A DNA stretch of 20,000 nt from the IMG/VR virus record IMGVR_UViG_3300023174_009220. One strand, 5' to 3'. Shown in pieces: positions 8,582 to 20,000 of the stretch. A program made the position numbers and the translations under genes. Source of the DNA: an uncultured virus (IMG/VR IMGVR_UViG_3300023174_009220). Lineage: Duplodnaviria; Heunggongvirae; Uroviricota; Caudoviricetes. Positions within the stretch are counted from its first letter, which is position 1, and every line of letters begins with the position of its first letter. The notes under the pieces were generated by a model. It did not search any database. It was not told where the DNA came from and saw nothing but the letters and a program-made list of their open reading frames with translations.

Positions 8582-9343
8582 TTAATTATATAAAATATCA
8601 ATCACTTCTCTATCAATAGGTGCATATTCTGTTGTTGTAGACCAACCTTGATAAAAAATACTTTCAGGATATTTGTAAGAATCATTAATAAGACCTAGTG
8701 ACTGTGTTAATTCTTCTCTTAGAAGATGTTTTTGTGCCATTTCATTTGTTGCTCTGTAAATATCAACACACATTATTCCATAATTATTCGGATACAACTC
8801 AAAATACCCCCAATTTGATTCCAATAAAGATGGGTAAACAACTTTGTAATTTTCTTGGAAATCCTGATACCCGCCAAGAAAAATAAAGAAATTTGCTTCA
8901 TCTTTATTTGACACTATCTCAATGTCAATAGGATCTATAATACTATTTAGTTCTGAAACAATTTTGTTTAATTCAGAACATAAAGATTTAGTTTTGGACC
9001 CATCAACATAAATCTTCATATTTGTAGTCCATTTTGTTGGTTTGGATTTTTTACCAGTGTATTCAGAATTTAAAGCAATTTCGTTAAAATACTCTATTGC
9101 TTCTTTTGAATGAAAAACTTTTTTTTGTTTTGGCTTTTCAACATATTCAGTTGTGCTGTTTTCAACGGTAGTGTTTTCATCACTACTATAATTTGAATTG
9201 TTTTTTGGTTTGTTAACTAACAGATGAGCTAATTCTTTGTCAGGATCAAATTCTATGTCATCTTTTCTCGTGATGATGCAAACGAAAACGAAATTGACGA
9301 TGGCAATTATTAAAATAAAGATTTTTAAAAATTTGTTTTTCAT
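8582..9343 (-). CDS. Membrane-anchored DUF2927-like (zincin-like) protein
   Basis: N-terminal TM helix, N/S/T/E linker, and HLLREELTQSLGLINDS....SIF motif. Confidence 0.75.
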   Translation of the reverse strand: MKNKFLKIFILIIAIVNFVFVCIITRKDDIEFDPDKELAHLLVNKPKNNSNYSSDENTTVENSTTEYVEKPKQKKVFHSKEAIEYFNEIALNSEYTGKKSKPTKWTTNMKIYVDGSKTKSLCSELNKIVSELNSIIDPIDIEIVSNKDEANFFIFLGGYQDFQENYKVVYPSLLESNWGYFELYPNNYGIMCVDIYRATNEMAQKHLLREELTQSLGLINDSYKYPESIFYQGWSTTTEYAPIDREVIDILYN

Positions 9344-9398
9344 GTTATTTTTTTAAAGTTTTTCTAATTCGTGTTTAACTTCTTCTCAAGGTTTCGTG

Positions 9399-9479
9399 TA
9401 TATAAATTATGTTGTTCTTCATAATTTAACTTGGTGGTCCCGCACGGGCTCGAACCGTGGACCTACTGATTATGAGTCA
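9399..9479. repeat. 81-bp perfect direct repeat, copy A (tRNA 3' part + trailer)
   Basis: Identical to 9920..10000 (offset 521). Contains the tRNA from position 29 to CCA plus a 33-nt trailer with an AATTATG/CATAATT hairpin. Confidence 0.97.
9432..9479 (-). pseudogene. 3' fragment of tRNA(CAU): anticodon loop, T arm, acceptor 3' strand, CCA
   Basis: TGACTCATAATCAGTAGGTCCACGGTTCGAGCCCGTGCGGGACCACCA with no adjoining 5' part. Confidence 0.9.
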
Positions 9480-9495
9480 TTTTCGTTTATGAAGT

Positions 9496-9897
9496 TCATA
9501 TTGTTATTTTTTTAACATTTTCTATTTCCATTTCTGGATTGTGGTATTCTCTGTGACAATTTGAACAAAGTAAGTCACATTTACTAACTTCTTCTAAGAT
9601 ATATTCCATTGATCTATTTGATAATGTTCTCATATCTAATTGAGAATCTTTCCCATTAGGGTCTCTGTGGTGAAACTCTAAAGCTGATAGATTCCTATCG
9701 TATTTACAAACCTTACAACATCCACCTAATAGTTCTATAAGATGTAATTTTCTCTTATAAGATCTTATCGTTTGTGAGTGATAAGTATTTGTTTGTTCTT
9801 TAACTCTGTCATAGTGATGTTTTTGTTTACAGTTATTTGAACAATACATCTTTTTCTGACCGGATAATTCATTATTACAAACTACACAATTTTTCAT
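9496..9897 (-). CDS. HNH endonuclease with N-terminal zinc finger (putative homing endonuclease)
   Basis: CVVC..YCSNNC zinc finger; CKVC...LEFHHRDP...KCDLLCSNCHREYH HNH core. Confidence 0.9.
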   Translation of the reverse strand: MKNCVVCNNELSGQKKMYCSNNCKQKHHYDRVKEQTNTYHSQTIRSYKRKLHLIELLGGCCKVCKYDRNLSALEFHHRDPNGKDSQLDMRTLSNRSMEYILEEVSKCDLLCSNCHREYHNPEMEIENVKKITI

Positions 9898-9919
9898 AAT
9901 AGTATTTAATTTTATACTA

Positions 9920-10000
9920 TATATAAATTATGTTGTTCTTCATAATTTAACTTGGTGGTCCCGCACGGGCTCGAACCGTGGACCTACTGATTATGAGTCA
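9920..10000. repeat. 81-bp perfect direct repeat, copy B
   Basis: Identical to 9399..9479. Confidence 0.97.
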
Positions 10001-10030
10001 GTTGCTACTAACCAACTGAGCTACAGGACC
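9953..10030 (-). tRNA. tRNA with CAT anticodon, most likely tRNA-Ile2 (lysidine type); CCA encoded; one extra T in the D arm
   Basis: GGTCCTG/CGGGACC acceptor, ACTGA-CTCATAA-TCAGT anticodon arm, CACGG-TTCGAGC-CCGTG T arm. Initiator hallmarks are absent (G1-C72 is paired, no triple GC pairs). Ile2 versus elongator Met is an inference. Confidence 0.9.
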
Positions 10031-10035
10031 AAATT

Positions 10036-10157
10036 TGGGAGTCGTTAGTGTTACCCTACTCCCACTCGTTACGTTGTCTAAGACAAGAGGCTTGACGAGG
10101 CCCATGGGCTACTTTTTACTTCGTGCGAAGTGAGTCGTGCTTGCGACCCCAGTAGCT
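10036..10157. ncRNA. Unidentified GC-richer structured segment (candidate ncRNA)
   Basis: Consecutive stems: TGGGAGT/ACTCCCA; CTCGTTA/TGACGAG enclosing TTGTC/GACAA; palindrome GCCCATGGGC; GCTACT/AGTAGC closing two hairpins (ACTTC/GAAGT and GTCG/CGAC). Confidence 0.45.
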
Positions 10158-10218
10158 AATTTCTGCTTTAGAATCATATCCTGCCTATATTTCATTATGT
10201 TATTCTCCATCGACTTTA

Positions 10219-10283
10219 GTTGCTCTAACCAACTGAGCTACAGGACCAAATTTGGTTGCTCTAACCAACTGAGCTATAGGACC
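10219..10283 (-). repeat. Two tandem 29-nt tRNA 5' fragments (10219-10247 and 10255-10283), period 36 bp
   Basis: GGTCCT(G/A)TAGCTCAGTTGGTTAGAGCAAC occurs twice, separated by the same CAAATTT leader that precedes the intact tRNA. Confidence 0.93.
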
Positions 10284-10290
10284 AATATTT

Positions 10291-10374
10291 CTAAGCTAAA
10301 AAAAGAGCCACTAATAGTATCAATGGTCCACAAGTAAGAATTAAAGCGATTGGTAAAAGATTTATATTTTTCAT
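10291..10374 (-). CDS. 27-aa hydrophobic peptide (not in the ORF track)
   Basis: MKNINLLPIALILTCGPLILLVALFLA*; the ATG lies 4 nt after a TATCTTTG -7 element. Confidence 0.5.
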   Translation of the reverse strand: MKNINLLPIALILTCGPLILLVALFLA

Positions 10375-10378
10375 ACAA

Positions 10379-10386
10379 CAAAGATA
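10379..10386 (-). promoter_or_regulatory. -7 element TATCTTTG, probably driving the peptide/tRNA(CAU) locus
   Basis: Matches TAnnTTTG; no clear -33 TTTG. Confidence 0.5.
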
Positions 10387-10427
10387 GTTATTTTTTTTAA
10401 TTAAAAAAATAAAATCATATTTTTTTA

Positions 10428-11348
10428 CTATTGGTAAAGAAAAAATCCTAAATCTTCTAATCCTCTACTCTCACCATACATAAGTGTAATTCCTTTATCT
10501 CTTATCCAATTTTCATCTGGCTCGATAAGTTCATTTTTATAGAAAAGATGACTAAAAACTAAATCACAAGCACTATTTCTAAACTCCTCAATTCCTGGAT
10601 CAGAAACAAAAGTTAAATTTTTCATATCAAACTCTTCGTCTTGGGTATCAATGTAGAATGTCCAATTGGTTATATCATCAAAATAGATAGTTACTTGTTC
10701 TTCTTTTGGTTGAGATTCTTCGAATTCGCTTAATTCAGAATATTCCAATCGACATGAAAGAAATGTAGCACCTACTTCATTTTTATTCCAGCTATAATAC
10801 TCATCTTCAGCATCAAAACCAAATTCTGAATTTAGGGATTTAAATTCATTTATTCTTTGAACATCACCATATTCTTCTGTTCCTTCTTCTACATCCTCAG
10901 CCCAAAATGTTTCACCATTACAGAAATCTTCAAGAGAAACTTCTTCTACCAAAGTTTTATCATCTACTAAAATAGAAATTTGAGCATCATTTTCAAATAG
11001 TGATATTCCATAGTAAGATCCATATTTTCTTAAATCAGGATTATCAAAAAGCCAATCTATCATTTCAAAATGACTACCCCCATTTTCAATAAAATTATTT
11101 ACTAACTCATTTAAATTTTTGAGTTTTTCTAAATCTTCCCTACTAATTGCGTTAAAAAGTGCTTCTTTTGGATCATCCCAACCATCTAAGGTAAGCGAGA
11201 AAATTAAATTTAGAAAATCATTTGCCGTTTCTACATCTTCGCCACAATATTGAAGAGCTTCTTTTACTTCATCTCTATATTCTTCTTTTAATACTCCAAA
11301 AAAATACTTTGGAATTCTACCCGATACGTTAATTTCTACTTGTGCCAT
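10428..11348 (-). CDS. Highly acidic hypothetical protein
   Basis: 306-aa ORF, very D/E-rich; no family recognised. Confidence 0.8.
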   Translation of the reverse strand: MAQVEINVSGRIPKYFFGVLKEEYRDEVKEALQYCGEDVETANDFLNLIFSLTLDGWDDPKEALFNAISREDLEKLKNLNELVNNFIENGGSHFEMIDWLFDNPDLRKYGSYYGISLFENDAQISILVDDKTLVEEVSLEDFCNGETFWAEDVEEGTEEYGDVQRINEFKSLNSEFGFDAEDEYYSWNKNEVGATFLSCRLEYSELSEFEESQPKEEQVTIYFDDITNWTFYIDTQDEEFDMKNLTFVSDPGIEEFRNSACDLVFSHLFYKNELIEPDENWIRDKGITLMYGESRGLEDLGFFLYQ

Positions 11349-11420
11349 AATTTAAAGTTTAATATCGATTTTATAAAAAATAAAAGAAAAGTTTAAATTT
11401 AGAACCACATTTTAATGGAT

Positions 11421-11453
11421 AAAAAAAAGAGACTCTTGGTGAGTCTCTTTTTT
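11421..11453 (-). terminator. Rho-independent terminator directly after tRNA-Arg
   Basis: AAAAAAGAGACTC-ACCAA-GAGTCTC followed by T8 on the minus strand; symmetric, so possibly bidirectional. Confidence 0.88.
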
Positions 11454-11454
11454 G

Positions 11455-11737
11455 TGATCCCGTTTGGATTCGAACCAAAGACCTACTGCTTAGACATACC
11501 ACTATAGCTTTCGCTACCATTTCTGTTTGTGGTCTGGACTATATCATCACCTTCAACATCACTTGTTAAGGTGCCTCCCCCTTAGTCTCTACACATTTCC
11601 TCATTTCTGAGGGTTAGCTCGGTATTACCATCACCCGAAGTGTTAAGGTTTCACCGAATTCGAGAAGTTCTATTTAATCATTTCTGACTAAACGCCCCCT
11701 TTGAGGCAGTTGCTCTATCCAGCTGAGCTACGGGACC
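11455..11737 (-). tRNA. tRNA-Arg(TCT) split by a group I intron; exons 11737-11704 and 11494-11455
   Basis: Spliced: GGTCCCGTAGCTCAGCTGGATAGAGCAACTGCCT^TCTAAGCAGTAGGTCTTTGGTTCGAATCCAAACGGGATCA, a canonical 74-nt cloverleaf; CCA not encoded. Confidence 0.93.
11495..11703 (-). ncRNA. Group I self-splicing intron, 209 nt, no ORF (IC3-like)
   Basis: 5' exon ends in U paired to G in P1 (GCCU^C/GGGGC); terminal G; P2 TTTAGTCA-GAAA-TGATTAAA; P AATTCGGTGAAA; Q AATACCGAGC; R GTAGAGACTA; S GATATAGTCC (P7 GACTA/TAGTC); P8 CACCTT/AAGGTG; P9 TAGC-GAAA-GCTA. Confidence 0.93.
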
Positions 11738-11763
11738 CAATATTTTAAGATTTTTCAAAGAGT

Positions 11764-11853
11764 TTACAACTCCCAGATACATCTTTTTTTTCGCCACTTT
11801 TTCATCCACCGATGTAGATAAATTGATAAGGCTATCTTTTTTATAAAATACAT
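11764..11853 (-). CDS. Possible 29-aa basic peptide (not in the ORF track)
   Basis: MYFIKKIALSIYLHRWMKKWRKKRCIWEL* fills the gap between the PspC-like gene and tRNA-Arg. Confidence 0.35.
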   Translation of the reverse strand: MYFIKKIALSIYLHRWMKKWRKKRCIWEL

Positions 11854-11869
11854 CTATTCTATCTATTAA

Positions 11870-12055
11870 CTAATTAAAGTTGGAAAATTCCTCCTCTTTT
11901 TCAATAAATATCCACATTAGTATATAAATCCAGAAACCAGATGGAACTAAGAAAAAAAGTAATCGAAAAAACCAAGGATTAATTCCAAAATAATTTGATA
12001 AACCACCACAAACTCCACCGATTATTTTATTTTTAGTTGACCGTTTAATTTTCAT
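11870..12055 (-). CDS. pspC: PspC domain protein
   Basis: RSTKNKIIGGVCGGLSNYFGINP...RLLF...YILMWIFI is the PspC signature. True start at ATG 12055, 4 nt after TATATTTG. Confidence 0.88.
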   Translation of the reverse strand: MKIKRSTKNKIIGGVCGGLSNYFGINPWFFRLLFFLVPSGFWIYILMWIFIEKEEEFSNFN

Positions 12056-12059
12056 ACTA

Positions 12060-12067
12060 CAAATATA
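12060..12067 (-). promoter_or_regulatory. -7 element TATATTTG before the PspC-like gene (near-leaderless)
   Basis: TATATTTG-TAGT-ATG, the same geometry as 10386-10372. Confidence 0.55.
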
Positions 12068-12110
12068 AAAAAAAGATTTTAATTTTAATATATAAAACAA
12101 AAAAGATTTT

Positions 12111-12629
12111 ATGAAACATATAAAAAATTTCAACAGCTACAAACCAGTCAATGAAGGTTTGGGATTGGCTCTTTTAGCCGGAGCTGGTTTGGCAATGTTT
12201 GCTCCGGCATTATATACTTCAGCAAAAAATTTCTGGTCTAAAAACGTAGTAGGTTCGAAATATTCAGAAACTGGAAATAAAAAACAAGTAGTTTGTAAAT
12301 TTAATAGAGATAACATTAGTCCAGCAGTAAGTTCACTTACCGAGAGTGAAAGACAATCAGGTCAAACAACTATTGAATTAAAAGAATACAAAGATATGTT
12401 TGGAAATATCTACTATGGATACGATCACGTTATCGGCGACGAAATGGGCGCAGGCGCTTTATATACAGCTATGTATAAAGCAGAAGATTGGGCAACTCTT
12501 GAATCTTGGTTAGCGGACGGTAAAAGATATGAAGGAAAAGGTTCTAAATTAGAAGTAAATCCAGTGGATTTGATATATGTAGATGATGTCAAAAATGTTA
12601 ATAGTTCTGGAACTCCAATTTCACAGTAA
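12111..12629 (+). CDS. Hypothetical protein with MKHIKNF..VNE leader and a hydrophobic G/A/L segment
   Basis: 172-aa ORF preceded by TAATATATA (12086-12094) and followed by a terminator. Confidence 0.8.
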   Translation: MKHIKNFNSYKPVNEGLGLALLAGAGLAMFAPALYTSAKNFWSKNVVGSKYSETGNKKQVVCKFNRDNISPAVSSLTESERQSGQTTIELKEYKDMFGNIYYGYDHVIGDEMGAGALYTAMYKAEDWATLESWLADGKRYEGKGSKLEVNPVDLIYVDDVKNVNSSGTPISQ

Positions 12630-14408: not shown

Positions 14409-17400
14409 TCATCTTAATAAATTAACATGACCTGTAAGTGTAATTAATTCCGCCTGATTTGTGGGTCTATATGATATTTTATAAGTATAAGTTCCACTTT
14501 GACAATCTAATCCTTCAATTCCATAAGATCCGTCCCAACCTATTTGTGGGTCTAACGATTCAAATAGAATTTCTCCCCATCTATTGTAAATCAACATTTT
14601 GTAGTCTTCTTTTGAAACACCGTTAGAAAATGTCGGAACAAATGTTTGATTGAACTTATCACCATCTGGTGTAAAAGTATTTGGAATATAAAATTGAACT
14701 GCTAAATTAGCCGGTATCAAAACCGATATACTGTCCTGACAACCCATCTGTGTTGTAGCAATTAGAGTGACTGTAAATCCACTGGTTGTTCCAGAGAAAA
14801 GATGCGAAGGATATTGTTGGCTCGAAAAAGTGCCGTCTCCAAAATTCCAAACCAGTCCAGTTGCACCAGAAGAGGTATTATTAAAATTTACCAATTGATT
14901 AATCTCCGTAAACACGGGTGGATTTGGTATAAAGCTGGCAGTAGGATAGTCTTCAACGCAAATTAGATTAGTTTGGGTAGTAGAGTTTATACATCCACCT
15001 TGATTAGCAGTTAAGGTAATGCTATAGCAACCCCCATTATTGAATGTCATATTAACTTGTGGACCACTGGCCACCGCACCAGAAGTAGAAGACCAATTAT
15101 ACACCGCCAGTTGACCTACAGTATCGGCTTCAAAATTCACAGTAACCGGAACGCAACCAGTTAGTGTATCCGCTACAAAACTGGCATTTGGAAGAGAATT
15201 AACAACTATTTGTGAACTTACTGGATTACTTTGACACCCATTTGCCGTGTATACCACGCTATAAGAAGTGGTGACCTGTGGACTTTCAGTAATTTGAGAA
15301 GTAGTTGAACCCTGTGACCAAAGAAATGTACCACCGGCCGGATTTGCGTTAGCAATTAGCGTTGCGGATTGTCCTACACAAATTGACACCGGATTGACCA
15401 CAACTTGTGGAAGAACAGTAACAATAACTTGAGTAGAAAACGTTCCACTTTGGCACCCATTTAAGGTGTATTGACAACTCCAAGAGGTATTAATTTGTGG
15501 ACTAACTGTAATAGTTTGAGTTGTTTGACCAGAAGACCATAACCAACTACCACCTAATAGATTCGGAGTCGCCACTAATTGAGTGGTCTCTCCAAAACAA
15601 ATTGTGTCGGTTGATAAATTTAATTGTGGTATTGGATTCACCGTTACTAAAATGTTTGCAAGGGCTTGACAACCGTTCCAGGTATAAAGAATGCTATATT
15701 GAGTCGTAGTATTTGGACTAACTGTAATAGATTGTGTTTGTTGACCGGTCGACCAAATAACTTGACCTGACGCAGGGAAATATTGAGGAGTCAGTGTTAC
15801 AGTTTGACCAGAACAAATTGTAGTATTTGAAGTAGTAATCTGTGGCACCGGAGCAACCGTTATAATGACTGAAGCACTGTCTACACAACCATTAGCCGCC
15901 GTTACAACAACTAAATAGGTTCCGGCAGTTGAAACCGAAACCATTGATTGAGTTCCTAAATTTTGATTCCACTGGTATGTTCCACCACCAGTTGCTTGGA
16001 GAGTGATGGTTGGTGAGTTACAGTCAATAATTGTTGTTCCAGAAATATTTGTGATTGCAGCAATAGGTGGTGTGATATTTTGAGTTATTGTGATGGTTTG
16101 TGAAACTGGGCAACCATTTGGGTCTATCATATTTACTGTATATGTTCCTGGTGTAGTTATTATATTGGTGTCATTTTGAGGAGTCAATCCACCAGTCCAA
16201 ACATATGAAACACCACCAGTTGCTTGGAGTGTGATAGATGGATTAAGACAAGTTAATGTTGTAGTTGCTGTTAGATTTAATATTTGAACCGGTAACTGAC
16301 TTAAAGATAACACAACTGCCGATTGAGAAGTAGCCTGACACCCATTTGCATCTTGAATAGTTATTTGGTAGTTTCCTACCCCTAAATTTGAAATGTTTTG
16401 AGTAGTAAGACCATTAGACCATAAAAAAGTGTAAGGTAAAACTCCACCAGACACGGTTGAATTAACACTACCCGTGCCTCCAGCACATAAGATATTTTGA
16501 GGCTGAGTGGTTACAAAAACTGCAGATTGTGGTTGACTTATTATCACAGAAGTAGTTGCCACACAACCATTGGCATCGGTAACGGTGACTTGGTAAGTCC
16601 CAGCGGATAATCCTGTTGGGTCTTCAACTGTTGAGCCGTTGCTCCAAAGATAAGTGTAAGGAGAAGTTCCACCAGCTGGTGTTAAATTGATAGATCCTGT
16701 AGCATTTCCAAAACAAAGAACATCTATATGAGTTGTTTGGAGTGTTAACGGGTTTTGTGGTTGGTTTATTGTCACAGAAGTAGTTGCCACACAACCATTG
16801 GCATCAGTAACGGTGACTTGGTAAGTTCCAGCGGATAATCCTGTTGGGTCTTCAACTGTTGAGCCGTTGCTCCAAAGATAAGTGTAAGGAGAAGTTCCAC
16901 CAGATGGTGTTAAATTGATAGATCCAGTGGTGTTTCCAAAACAAAAAACATCTATATGAGTTGTTGTTAAAGATAGAGCGGCCTGTGGTTGGTTTATTGT
17001 CACAGAGGTAGTTGCCACACAACCATTGGTATCAGTAACGGTGACTTGGTAAGTTCCAGCGGATAGACCGGTTGGGTCTTCAACTGTTGAGCCGTTGCTC
17101 CAAAGATAAGTGTAGGGAGAAGTTCCACCAGCTGGTGTTAAATTGATAGATCCTGTAGCATTTCCAAAACAAAGAACATCGATATGAGTTGTTTGGAGTG
17201 TTAACGGGTTTTGTGGTTGAGTTATAGTGATTGAAACAGGAGAAGAAACGCAACCATCTATACTTGTTGCAAAGTAAGTATAGGTGCCTGGTGACAAATT
17301 AGTAGTTGGTGATCCACCATAAGTGTAAGGCGCATTGGCTTGTGAAGCTTGGAGTATGACACTTCCAGTTCCACCAAAACAAAGAACATTACTAGAACTA

Positions 17401-20000
17401 ACAGATAAAACCGGAACTGGATAAACTATAAACTGAGATGTAGTCGAACATCCGGTATTGGTAAGATAAGTAATCTGAGTGACTCCAGGTGACACTCCAG
17501 TAACTACACCGGACTGTGATACAGTAGCAACCCCAGGATTTTGACTACTCCAACTTCCAGAAGCAACCGGATTTGATAGTTGTGAAGTCTGACCAACACA
17601 ACTTTGCAGGTTCCCAGAAATTGGCTGTAGTGGATTGACAATAACGGTGGCTTGAGAAGATACATTTGGACAAAGTGGCACTGAATAAGTAACTGTATAG
17701 GTGGTTGTTTGATTTGGTGTGACATTAATTTGAGAACTGGTCAAACCAGTTGGATTCCAAAGCCAGGTTCCACCACCAACAGTAGATGTCGCCAAAATAG
17801 TGGCCTGTTGACCTAAACAAACAGTATCTCCAATTGTAGTGACTTGGGGAATCGGGTTAATTTGAACCGTAACCGGAACTAATTGTGAGGTGCAGTTTTG
17901 AGCATTTTGACCAGAAACCCAAAATTGAGTTGTTGTTTGTAAAGTTTGAGTGGTCCAAGTGGCAGTATTTGCTACTTGACCAGTTCCATTTTGATTAGAA
18001 AACCAAAGATAAGTGTTTAGACCAGAAGCAGTTAAAGTGGCTTGACCAGGACCACAAAGTGTTTGGTTTGCTACAGTTGGTGGATTCGGTATAGCATTGA
18101 CCGTAACTAAAACTGTCTGAGTAACAGAAGCACAACCTGGAACAGTGTAGGTAACCGTGTATTGTTGAGTTGAATTTGGAGAAACTGTGATCTGAGAGCC
18201 GGATAAATTTCCTGGTTGCCAACTCCAACTTCCACCAGGTGTTGTAGAAGTTGCGGTAAGTTGAGCAGTTTGACCCTGACAAATAGTAGCACCCGAAGTG
18301 TTAATAACAGGAATAGGATTTACAGTAACTGTGACCGGAGTAAGTTGTGAAGGACAACCGGCATTTATGTTCCAACTGATGGTGCCGCTGCCATTTCCGT
18401 TGCCAACTCCAGGTGTAGTAGATCCACCAACAACTCCTCCAATAAACGAAGAACCGCCGCCGCCGCCAGCAGACCAACCTTGGCCGTGATTTTGTGTTGA
18501 TGTTCCACCACCACCACCCCAGTATCCGCCTCCGCCACCTCCACCACCTGCGGCGTTATACCCAGTAGAACCAGCACCACCTTGTCCTAAAGTCCCATTT
18601 GTTGCCCCTCTAGTCAGTGTCCAGGCTAATCCACCGGCTACTTGTGTTCCACCAGTTCCACCATATCCAGAAGAAAAGTTAGCAGATGCGGTTCCTGAAG
18701 TTCCACCACCAACACCAGTAGCCCCGTCTCTTCCACCACCGGCTCCACCAGCGGCAACTATAACTCGATTAGCAAGAGCCGTTCCACCCACTCGTATATC
18801 CGAAGCACCACCGCCACTTCCTGCGTGTTGACCGGCGCCGATGTCAACACCACCCTGGCCGCCACCATTCCAACCAGGCAGTCCACCAGAATTTCCACCC
18901 TGGCCTCCAATATAAATGTTTATTGTTTGACCGGCGGTAAGTGCTAGAGAACCAGTCGCTTGACCACCAAGACCACCTTGTGTATTTAATCCGTTTCCAC
19001 CACGAGCTCCTGTTAAAGTGATGGTATAGTTTCCAGTAGCCGGTGCAGTAAATGTTTGAGGAGCACCAGTATAATTGAAGGTTTGTTGACCGGTTGATAC
19101 CCCTGCGCCAGCAATTCCAACATAATAAGTAGTAGTGTTTTGTAAAACTGGTGTAGTATATTGTTGTGTATTAGCCAATTGACCAGTGCCATTTGAATTA
19201 GCACACCAAACATAATTTGCACCTCCGGTTGCCGTTAAAGTAGCTTGACCTGGACCACAAAGTGTTTGACCAGAAGCTTGTGGAGCCAAAGGCGCAGCGA
19301 TAACTGTAATTGTAACCTGAGCACAACTGGGACTAAAATTTCCACCACTAAAATTATTAACAAAATAAGTAGTTGTTACCAAAGGTGTGACGGTGATGTT
19401 TTGACCAGTTCCAATTTGAGTACCTTGACAACTGCCGGTATACCAAGTCTGTGTTCCAACAGCACCATTAGCCGTAAGTGTAACAGTTTGACCAGAACAT
19501 ATAGTATTTGACGAGGCGGTAATACTTGTTGGTGGGCTGACACCACCAGCACAATTAGTAGAACGATATCCTAGGACTCGGCTAAGTCCACAAGCACAAG
19601 TAGCACCCTGTGCCCAGCTACCAAGTTGAATATAATAGGTGGCGGTGGCAGGAGCGGTCCAAGAGATATAAGAACCCAATCCGCAGTAATCATCATTTGA
19701 AGTTTGTATACCAGTAGTTGGTTGCGAGTTTATTGTTAAATAGGTATCACCAGTATAAGAGGCACCAGGTGCAGTAGATTGGCAATAAGTAAATTGATAG
19801 GTACACCCAGCCTGAGCTTGAAATGATAAGTATCCGTGGCAGGTTTGTGGATAATACTGCCAGGTTAAATTTGGACTTATTGAGCCTAAATTTGTAGCAC
19901 AGCAACATTGAGCTAAGGTATTTTGTGAGAATAAAAAAAGAAAAGTAAATAAGAAAATTGTAGACAGTTGTCGAAACAAAAACGATTCTAATCCCTTCAT
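14409..20000 (-). CDS. Large secreted adhesin-like protein: Ig-like repeats, glycine-rich domain, SprB repeats, PKD domains, T9SS type-B (gliding-motility-associated) C-terminal domain
   Basis: Signal peptide ending TLA-Q; FNYTGAPQTFTAP..GGGGGGGYWGGGGG domain; CFGNATGSINLTPAGGTSPYTYLWSNG SprB repeats; WNFGDG PKD; C-terminus YIPNTFTPDGDKFN..IYNRWGE..GWDG..GTYTY..GHVNLLR. The ATG is at the window edge, so the start is not certain. Confidence 0.92.
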   Translation of the reverse strand: MKGLESFLFRQLSTIFLFTFLFLFSQNTLAQCCCATNLGSISPNLTWQYYPQTCHGYLSFQAQAGCTYQFTYCQSTAPGASYTGDTYLTINSQPTTGIQTSNDDYCGLGSYISWTAPATATYYIQLGSWAQGATCACGLSRVLGYRSTNCAGGVSPPTSITASSNTICSGQTVTLTANGAVGTQTWYTGSCQGTQIGTGQNITVTPLVTTTYFVNNFSGGNFSPSCAQVTITVIAAPLAPQASGQTLCGPGQATLTATGGANYVWCANSNGTGQLANTQQYTTPVLQNTTTYYVGIAGAGVSTGQQTFNYTGAPQTFTAPATGNYTITLTGARGGNGLNTQGGLGGQATGSLALTAGQTINIYIGGQGGNSGGLPGWNGGGQGGVDIGAGQHAGSGGGASDIRVGGTALANRVIVAAGGAGGGRDGATGVGGGTSGTASANFSSGYGGTGGTQVAGGLAWTLTRGATNGTLGQGGAGSTGYNAAGGGGGGGGYWGGGGGTSTQNHGQGWSAGGGGGSSFIGGVVGGSTTPGVGNGNGSGTISWNINAGCPSQLTPVTVTVNPIPVINTSGATICQGQTAQLTATSTTPGGSWSWQPGNLSGSQITVSPNSTQQYTVTYTVPGCASVTQTVLVTVNAIPNPPTVANQTLCGPGQATLTASGLNTYLWFSNQNGTGQVANTATWTTQTLQTTTQFWVSGQNAQNCTSQLVPVTVQINPIPQVTTIGDTVCLGQQATILATSTVGGGTWLWNPTGLTSSQINVTPNQTTTYTVTYSVPLCPNVSSQATVIVNPLQPISGNLQSCVGQTSQLSNPVASGSWSSQNPGVATVSQSGVVTGVSPGVTQITYLTNTGCSTTSQFIVYPVPVLSVSSSNVLCFGGTGSVILQASQANAPYTYGGSPTTNLSPGTYTYFATSIDGCVSSPVSITITQPQNPLTLQTTHIDVLCFGNATGSINLTPAGGTSPYTYLWSNGSTVEDPTGLSAGTYQVTVTDTNGCVATTSVTINQPQAALSLTTTHIDVFCFGNTTGSINLTPSGGTSPYTYLWSNGSTVEDPTGLSAGTYQVTVTDANGCVATTSVTINQPQNPLTLQTTHIDVLCFGNATGSINLTPAGGTSPYTYLWSNGSTVEDPTGLSAGTYQVTVTDANGCVATTSVIISQPQSAVFVTTQPQNILCAGGTGSVNSTVSGGVLPYTFLWSNGLTTQNISNLGVGNYQITIQDANGCQATSQSAVVLSLSQLPVQILNLTATTTLTCLNPSITLQATGGVSYVWTGGLTPQNDTNIITTPGTYTVNMIDPNGCPVSQTITITQNITPPIAAITNISGTTIIDCNSPTITLQATGGGTYQWNQNLGTQSMVSVSTAGTYLVVVTAANGCVDSASVIITVAPVPQITTSNTTICSGQTVTLTPQYFPASGQVIWSTGQQTQSITVSPNTTTQYSILYTWNGCQALANILVTVNPIPQLNLSTDTICFGETTQLVATPNLLGGSWLWSSGQTTQTITVSPQINTSWSCQYTLNGCQSGTFSTQVIVTVLPQVVVNPVSICVGQSATLIANANPAGGTFLWSQGSTTSQITESPQVTTSYSVVYTANGCQSNPVSSQIVVNSLPNASFVADTLTGCVPVTVNFEADTVGQLAVYNWSSTSGAVASGPQVNMTFNNGGCYSITLTANQGGCINSTTQTNLICVEDYPTASFIPNPPVFTEINQLVNFNNTSSGATGLVWNFGDGTFSSQQYPSHLFSGTTSGFTVTLIATTQMGCQDSISVLIPANLAVQFYIPNTFTPDGDKFNQTFVPTFSNGVSKEDYKMLIYNRWGEILFESLDPQIGWDGSYGIEGLDCQSGTYTYKISYRPTNQAELITLTGHVNLLR
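16536..17219 (-). repeat. Three near-identical 228-bp (76-aa) SprB repeat units
   Basis: Anchor GTAGTTGCCACACAACCATTGG recurs at an exact 228-bp spacing (16552, 16780, 17008). Confidence 0.95.

Follow-up and report, generated by a model that had tools for sequence, protein, structure and literature searches.

A tRNA gene cut in two around a complete copy of itself and a nuclease gene raises the question of how such an arrangement came about and what keeps it in place. We analyzed a locus of this kind in a stretch of 20,000 nucleotides from an uncultured virus of the Caudoviricetes (IMG/VR record IMGVR_UViG_3300023174_009220), hereafter called the window. The locus is probably a homing-endonuclease cassette: it disables the gene it targets and brings a replacement along. 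All the pieces described by the initial annotation were found (Table 1). Joining the inner halves, 10247-10219 (29 nt) and 9479-9432 (48 nt), reproduced the exact 77-nt tRNA that had been claimed, which equals the 78-nt intact copy minus base 10007; this extra T in the D arm is the sole difference between cargo tRNA and split gene. The two 5′ fragments differ solely at position 7, where the outer one has an A unable to pair with the present 3′ half, and no 3′ half matching the outer fragment was found anywhere in the window. The inner 5′ fragment and the intact copy have a leader of 7-8 nt in common, and the two trailers are identical over 33 nt. The placement of the junction at positions 28-29 holds, but it is ambiguous by one base (28/29 or 29/30) since the base on either side is a T (10218 and 9479).

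Table 1. Features of the split tRNA locus, in transcription order (the Ile2 type is the assignment argued for in the text).
Feature	Position	Strand	Remark
Outer 5′ fragment, tRNA-Ile2(CAU) gene positions 1-28	10255..10283	-	also in the X16 empty allele
Leader, 7 nt, equal to the cargo tRNA leader	10248..10254	-	
Resident tRNA-Ile2(CAU) 5′ half, positions 1-28; left flank of the element	10219..10247	-	
Inserted element, 739 bp	9480..10218 (equally 9479-10217; one-base ambiguity)	-	9478 joined to 10218 in X16
188-nt piece 5′ of the cargo tRNA	10031..10218	-	
Intact cargo tRNA(CAU), Ile2 type	9953..10030	-	
33-nt trailer with palindrome TTATG-N8-CATAA (9945-9928); candidate operator	9920..9952	-	
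HNH endonuclease ORF, 133 aa	9496..9897	-	
Resident tRNA 3′ half, position 29 to CCA; right flank of the element	9432..9479	-	
Trailer copy 2, 33 nt, same palindrome (9424-9407), no HNH gene after it	9399..9431	-	

The HNH gene is the only ORF of at least 50 aa wholly within the 739-bp element, in which neither an integrase nor terminal repeats were found (ORF list). Integrative elements that target tRNA genes insert into the gene, duplicate tRNA sequence, encode an integrase and rebuild the target through the att core. We considered such an element here and rejected it, since there is no integrase, the halves stay apart and at most one base is duplicated.

Runs from three studies contain at least 0.97 of 349 sampled words of the region, and four of these runs may be the source of the window itself. 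Contigs were compared for 4 of the 22 listed runs, those with small word shares being left out. Results showed that contigs from runs X3, X7 and X16 cross the junctions, the one between the HNH gene and the 3′ half being crossed with 30 letters on one side where the rule of the tool is 31, and that depth in X7 was similar over the insert, the HNH gene and the flanks (8.1, 5.4 and 6.7-10.4). In run X16 (study P7), position 9478 is joined directly to 10218 in one contig, so that exactly 739 bases are missing; the contig then runs ungapped through the outer 5′ fragment to 10900 with 10 differences; a contig of run X10 (P4) ends in the same uninterrupted junction. Therefore, an uninterrupted gene exists in a near-identical phage, and the element measures 739 bp, duplicates one base at most and lies at 28/29 or 29/30. 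The outer 5′ fragment, being also in the empty allele, therefore belongs to an earlier event and is an older scar. An assembly artefact from collapsed strains could draw on the 84-nt and ~31-nt repeats in the locus and on the fact that no single contig spans the whole 9390-10290 stretch, but it is hardly credible in view of the junction-crossing contigs, the even X7 depth, the empty allele in other studies and the same layout in unrelated phages, including RefSeq NC_055901.1. The questions that the initial annotation had raised, of misassembly and of an uninterrupted allele, were both answered in its favour, and the split tRNA locus is confirmed as real.

The holders of the window HNH are freshwater metagenomes; it was recorded on 7 contigs, the longest of 492,847 bases, and the source would be a jumbo phage. 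As close relatives with an empty allele and an intact target exist (X16, X10), presence of the HNH gene is optional. The empty alleles of these relatives carry different sequence 3′ of the trailer, below 9388, with two variants in X16, and the spot 3′ of the tRNA-Ile2 gene is therefore a variable insertion site.

The HNH protein has an N-terminal four-cysteine motif and an HNH core, and H76, H77, H115, H119 and the cysteine pairs are invariant in 49 aligned relatives, out of the 120 homologs listed. PHROG HNH families matched it (best E 3e-21) and Pfam gave no HNH match. Its structural model (pLDDT 85) had weak fold matches, many of them HNH nucleases (Foldseek best E 0.15; best Z 4.1, rmsd 4.5 with 62 aligned in a further fold search). 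Many relatives are 85-99% identical. Judged from these features, the gene appears to encode an intact nuclease of a homing family, lying outside any intron or intein.

We then collected 251 loci with an HNH gene of this family, counting the window and some duplicates. Pattern labels put 34 of them in a tRNA(CAU) intron, 19 reversed in such an intron, 63 adjacent to one, 39 free next to a CAU or UAU tRNA and 74 in other settings; hand labels added 16 nested loci and 6 with one orphan half. Among bacterial genome loci with identity of at least 52%, the HNH ORF lay in an intron after anticodon base 36 of tRNA(CAU) in 30 of 36, and the Rfam group I core RF00028 exceeded its threshold in 2 of 3 intron loci checked (L290, L328), the third being cut by a contig end. 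In viral and metagenome loci, CAU and UAU calls made up 43 of 153 tRNA calls within 300 nt of the HNH gene versus 25 of 258 at greater distances. The HNH family is tied to the tRNA-Ile2(CAU) gene. Several bacterial loci were recorded in addition. In Bacteroidota (L289-L323, among them L290 Hymenobacter and L312 Runella), chromosomal tRNA-Ile(CAU) genes have group I introns of ~670-710 nt that encode the HNH near their 5′ end. The HNH is free, divergent and beside an ORF-less intron in Gammaproteobacteria L325, L330 and L335, and reversed within an intron after U33 in Chloroflexota L328 and L333.

Because of its sequence features, the intron site and the UAU replacements in relatives, the tRNA(CAU) of the window appears to be of the AUA-reading Ile2 type and not a tRNA-Met. 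Its CUCAUAA loop, A73, C4-G69 and C5-G68 fit the identity rules of AUA-reading tRNA-Ile2; in relatives, the same type of gene has anticodon-loop introns and several cassettes carry a UAU anticodon. Beside the HNH genes, the target core was kept in 5 of 27 distinct CAU arms of intact tRNAs, 2 of these being the window's own, and 17 neighbouring anticodon arms read UAU. Conversely, none of 84 distinct phage Ile2 genes keeping the core, picked by the core pattern, had an HNH gene of this family within 1.5 kb. The presumed site is thus lost in the split allele and the arms of the neighbouring tRNAs are altered in relatives, whereas the cargo copy in the window retains the whole presumed target core. 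The extra T was considered as a mark of HNH exposure and was unsupported, the same variant being found in 9 of the 84 phage Ile2 genes with no HNH nearby; immunity of the cargo remains presumed for this reason. A cargo with its core kept and one common T added is the weakest point of the homing reading.

Some cargo tRNA-like genes have an unusual shape (L249:1841-1921, L002:2842-2923, L144, L164, L134, L140, L382). Their anticodon arm, reading UAU or CAU, lies near the acceptor stem with a D-loop-like motif behind it, and standard ARAGORN missed them. In L174 and L202 (~110-240 nt 5′ of the HNH gene) and in L381 (Lak-B1), the anticodon loop is broken by a tRNA-like insert of ~80-100 nt, the HNH gene lying outside the interrupted tRNA, directly downstream.

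Nested halves around a spare tRNA and an HNH gene were found in L002, L212, L233, L160/161, L206/220/224/242/249, L216 and L164. Halves flank the HNH gene in L156, where no spare tRNA was seen; L255 shows the nested design in a tRNA-Arg gene, and RefSeq crAssphage cr130_1 has the layout with a decayed HNH. Among 5 records inspected, no cultured phage with an intact nested cassette was found. A quick tree of 59 of the 184 distinct HNH sequences needed 4 changes of the Ile-type nested label and rejected one clade (p-AU 4.7e-5), so that a single origin is rejected at p=5e-5 after rounding and the nested layout arose more than once. The nearest relatives of the window HNH, L130 and L001, stand free, each preceded by an intact tRNA(CAU) and the palindrome seen in the window.

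Junctions were read by eye in 10 Ile-type nested loci. The 5′ pieces end at positions 25-31, and the 3′ pieces start at 29-37 in 8 loci and near 47-49 in 2; three loci had lost no bases at the junction, whereas seven had lost from ~3 to more than 20. Breakpoints in relatives scatter over positions 25-37, and the initial annotation overstated its case in taking a single exact position to mean that insertion is site-specific. The scatter is what a site-specific cut with sloppy capture and later homing would leave, and it speaks against site-specific recombination and splicing. In five gut-phage loci, one cassette, 95-98% alike, sits at one and the same 29/30 junction, with flanks that are unrelated (~50%, except for 66% in one upstream pair), and in at least two tRNA alleles. 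This related cassette has spread; the window cassette may do likewise. The halves in L220 and L249 yield mismatched anticodon stems, as co-conversion during homing would leave. In L206, L220, L242 and L249, the first ~14 bases of the cassette are an inverted copy of the target anticodon arm, which may be a scar left by fold-back or may serve as another binding site.

The 188-nt piece in front of the cargo tRNA is partly structured (z -1.9) and matched no Rfam family. Its 3′ ~75 nt have one likely homolog, 5′ of the tRNA(CAU)-HNH pair of L001, with an alignment score that 3 of 1500 random windows also reached. Viral contigs, scanned three times by pattern, returned 0, 3 and 1 stretches, among which only L001 was plausible. 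The piece is absent from the other nested loci and therefore looks like captured neighbouring DNA, so the RNA that had been proposed as a component of the cassette is not a general one. The free-standing arrangement of L130 and L001, together with the L001 homolog, points to capture of a pre-existing RNA-tRNA-HNH segment; a search for a donor allele bearing the exact 188-nt piece found none. Ribozyme readings of the piece were judged by eye and dropped. An RNA-guided HNH of the OMEGA/HEARO kind, which would have a conserved guide RNA next to the gene and the domains of IscB, was also rejected, there being no Rfam hit, an RNA piece with one likely homolog and a protein of 133 aa.

The locus-specific 188-nt piece could also be taken as the mark of a one-off repair scar, in which the same nuclease made the same break, the captured piece was accidental and homing was lost because the enzyme is off or the cargo is still cut. 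Junctions that differ among relatives, a cargo that is nearly the same allele as the target and an older scar directly adjoining would agree with such an accident. We consider it unlikely, since the catalytic residues of the HNH are intact and relatives at 85-99% are many, the three studies hold almost all the sampled words of the region (with the reservation on the four runs given above) and the related cassette recurs at one junction between unrelated flanks. The empty allele and the HNH-tRNA ties bear out the proposal of an integrase-free cassette of ~740 bp that lies in a tRNA gene and brings a spare tRNA of the same type. Repair of a nuclease break, which the initial annotation had offered as the alternative, becomes part of the same story, with the outer fragment as an earlier event.

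Another way to keep the split gene useful would be rescue at the RNA level, by an intron of unknown type or by excision and ligation of the halves, so that the outer tRNA is still made. The exact join in the window, the partly structured RNA at the start of the insert and a true group I intron in a tRNA-Arg gene of the same phage speak for this reading. Against it, the element has no Rfam intron match: RF00028 was absent from it at E≤10 (9200-12200 searched), a search of limited sensitivity because it also missed the tRNA-Arg intron, which a narrower search found. The element ends in A (or T) within the anticodon stem and lacks the U/G boundaries of group I introns. A mobile group I intron was rejected on these three grounds: no matched core, wrong ends and a site in the anticodon stem. 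The 40-nt ends of the element form a duplex of -8.1 kcal/mol, which is unremarkable as 28 of 500 shuffles were as good. Split tRNA genes that yield tRNA halves are reportedly found in Nanoarchaeum; trans-splicing of this kind was rejected here, the halves being without complementary flanks. The loss of bases in most nested relatives and the mismatched stems of L220 and L249 also weigh against RNA rescue. A tRNA inside a longer transcript is cut out by normal tRNA processing, which would excise the internal tRNA here. In RNA run X3, which covers the locus, we saw no contigs joining the outer halves, although contigs cannot prove absence, strand or level; a spliced product of the outer halves has no support. 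RNA-level rescue is accordingly very improbable. A Sigma-70 promoter scan gave 3 sites versus 4.9 expected.

The palindrome TTATG-N8-CATAA ends 30 nt before the start of the window HNH gene. TTATG-N-CATAA was present within 170 nt upstream of an HNH match in 40 of 177 distinct loci versus 7 of 2330 AT-matched windows, and in a second scan of 231 distinct loci the spacer was 8 in 34 of 34 such sites. The half-site is the anticodon plus AA (positions 34-38) and thus repeats the target anticodon loop. A GTT-type palindrome occurred in 8 loci, 7 of them beside tRNA-Asn(GUU), which is a neighbour in 22 of the 231 loci (hypergeometric 2e-7), and a TCT-type palindrome in 2 loci, both beside tRNA-Arg(UCU). 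Overall, palindrome and tRNA matched in 34 of 55 cases versus 22.7 on average and 32 at most in 2000 permutations, in statistics that count kin loci and so are not independent; the CAT type stood beside CAU in 25 of 34, only slightly more than the 60% base rate. The palindrome is absent from most loci, including 31 of 33 that are intron-encoded. T4 intron endonucleases have operators that resemble their own homing sites (PMC2988022). The palindrome may likewise be an operator, from which specificity and a cut near 29/30 could be predicted. When the CAT half-site is laid on the target, the centre of the 8-base spacer would fall at 29/30, where the loss-free junctions fall; the target anticodon arm itself is not palindromic, and this dyad argument is read from the DNA pattern alone. 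Presence of the palindrome in both window trailers suggests that the resident allele once had an HNH neighbour. An HNH remnant after the outer trailer, an idea formed by eye, was looked for in a single translated frame, where nothing was convincing.

We propose the following course of events. The HNH would be a DNase that recognizes a specific site in the anticodon arm of tRNA-Ile2(CAU) genes, and its palindrome, copying the target anticodon loop, would probably serve autorepression. Its usual state, as seen in free-standing loci, would be just 3′ of an AUA-reading tRNA gene that is left uncut. In a mixed infection, the HNH would cleave a close relative's intact allele around positions 28-31. 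Closure of the break would then come not by ordinary gene conversion but by capture of the 739-bp donor piece, made of upstream DNA, tRNA, trailer and HNH gene; illegitimate break repair has been described for T4 enzymes (PMC2988022). The resident gene would thereby become two dead halves, with AUA decoding supplied by the cargo tRNA. The halves might act as homology arms through which the cassette homes into other unbroken alleles, much as an intron does but complementing the gene rather than being spliced out of it, and the outer 5′ fragment would be the scar of an earlier round at the same site.

The partners of the free-standing copies, nearly always an AUA-reading tRNA with an altered arm, also bear on a different use, in which the HNH is a weapon kept for cutting the Ile2 gene of hosts or competing phages, the phage's own tRNA being a resistant antidote and the self-split a side effect. 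A pattern search found no intact canonical Ile2 arm in four intron-bearing Bacteroidota genomes, so Ile2 is single-copy there, and 90 of the 306 Ile codons in 13 window ORFs are AUA. The same pattern would be expected from homing alone, however, and we regard the weapon as quite improbable. Parts of it enter a wider scheme that we offer as a speculation, with a smaller chance of being right than of being wrong. In this scheme, a family of ~130-aa HNH proteins would read tRNA anticodon loops in DNA, the specificity of each lineage being declared in the upstream palindrome (anticodon + AA half-sites). It would build natural home-and-rescue drives in phages that attack the one Ile2 gene of a host or a rival phage as well, so that AUA decoding comes to depend on the cassette tRNA. 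It would further supply the endonucleases of bacterial tRNA-Ile group I introns, the free, intron-adjacent, intron-encoded and complementing forms being one cycle.

Returning to the cassette reading, the closest known counterpart is SegB of the T4/T6 tRNA cluster, a free-standing GIY-YIG homing endonuclease that cuts within tRNA genes and spreads itself together with neighbouring tRNAs (PMC2330249; PMC13096335). Both are free-standing nucleases that adjoin tRNA genes and are absent from relatives. SegB recognizes a motif in the T arm that many tRNAs share, has no preference for an isotype and is located between tRNA genes, whereas the HNH family is tied to one isotype, has breaks in the anticodon arm and has its gene inside the target with a spare copy. 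Aeh1 mobE in nrdA and T4 mobA in gene 60 are endonuclease insertions that split genes (PMC2988022), and like them the window has a non-intron endonuclease gene in a critical part of a host gene, left in two pieces. The pieces around mobE and mobA still form a working enzyme, whereas in the window a second whole gene apparently restores function. The same source has free-standing homing endonucleases cleaving hundreds to thousands of bases from their insertion site (PMC2988022); the window HNH lies inside its presumed target with breaks clustered there and, if confirmed, would depart from this feature.

The tRNA-Ile(CAU) gene of Azoarcus has a compact group I intron of 205 nt (PMC13168695), too short for this HNH ORF. 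The likeness is in the tRNA type, and HNH relatives 53-66% identical lie in or beside group I introns, the anticodon-loop intron hosts being Bacteroidota and Gammaproteobacteria. Unlike these introns, the window element has no ribozyme core and sits ~7 bases upstream of the intron site. In the HomeR design, a nuclease is reportedly directed against a needed gene and the rescue is built into the drive, which is synthetic, Cas9-based and made in flies. It is described as an engineered home-and-rescue gene drive (PMC7968924), and its likeness to the window cassette is an analogy of design, not kinship.

The HNH cassette, then, works like a free-standing homing endonuclease but sits inside its target and complements it. 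In literature that covered subscription journals thinly, we found no description of the nested layout, of the HNH family in tRNA-Ile introns or of the palindrome. Besides splicing and genes in pieces, the cassette would represent a third way in which a homing endonuclease can persist within a gene that is needed, by ruining it and supplying a replacement. Part of phage tRNA gene turnover, as well as the UAU and unusually shaped AUA readers, could be explained in this way. With one family in free-standing, intron-adjacent, intron-encoded and nested states at a single target, 'collaborative homing' as a route to mobile introns becomes testable in one system, and the palindrome allows the target and cut site of very small nucleases to be predicted from sequence. 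Standard annotation picks up the cargo tRNA alone and misses the halves.

Other genes of the window were recorded in passing. The tRNA-Arg(UCU) gene at 11737-11455 (minus strand), missed by ARAGORN, holds an ORF-free group I intron of 209 nt (11703-11495; RF00028, 68.6 bits) after U33. On the same strand, Pfam found an adenylate/guanylate cyclase domain, a D12 adenine methyltransferase, a bifunctional nuclease with a UVR motif and RNase H-like and AAA genes between 1104 and 6138. An ORF of 1863 aa at 14409-20000, also on the minus strand, has a signal-peptide-like start and glycine-rich and repeated segments, and by eye resembles a Bacteroidota surface protein.
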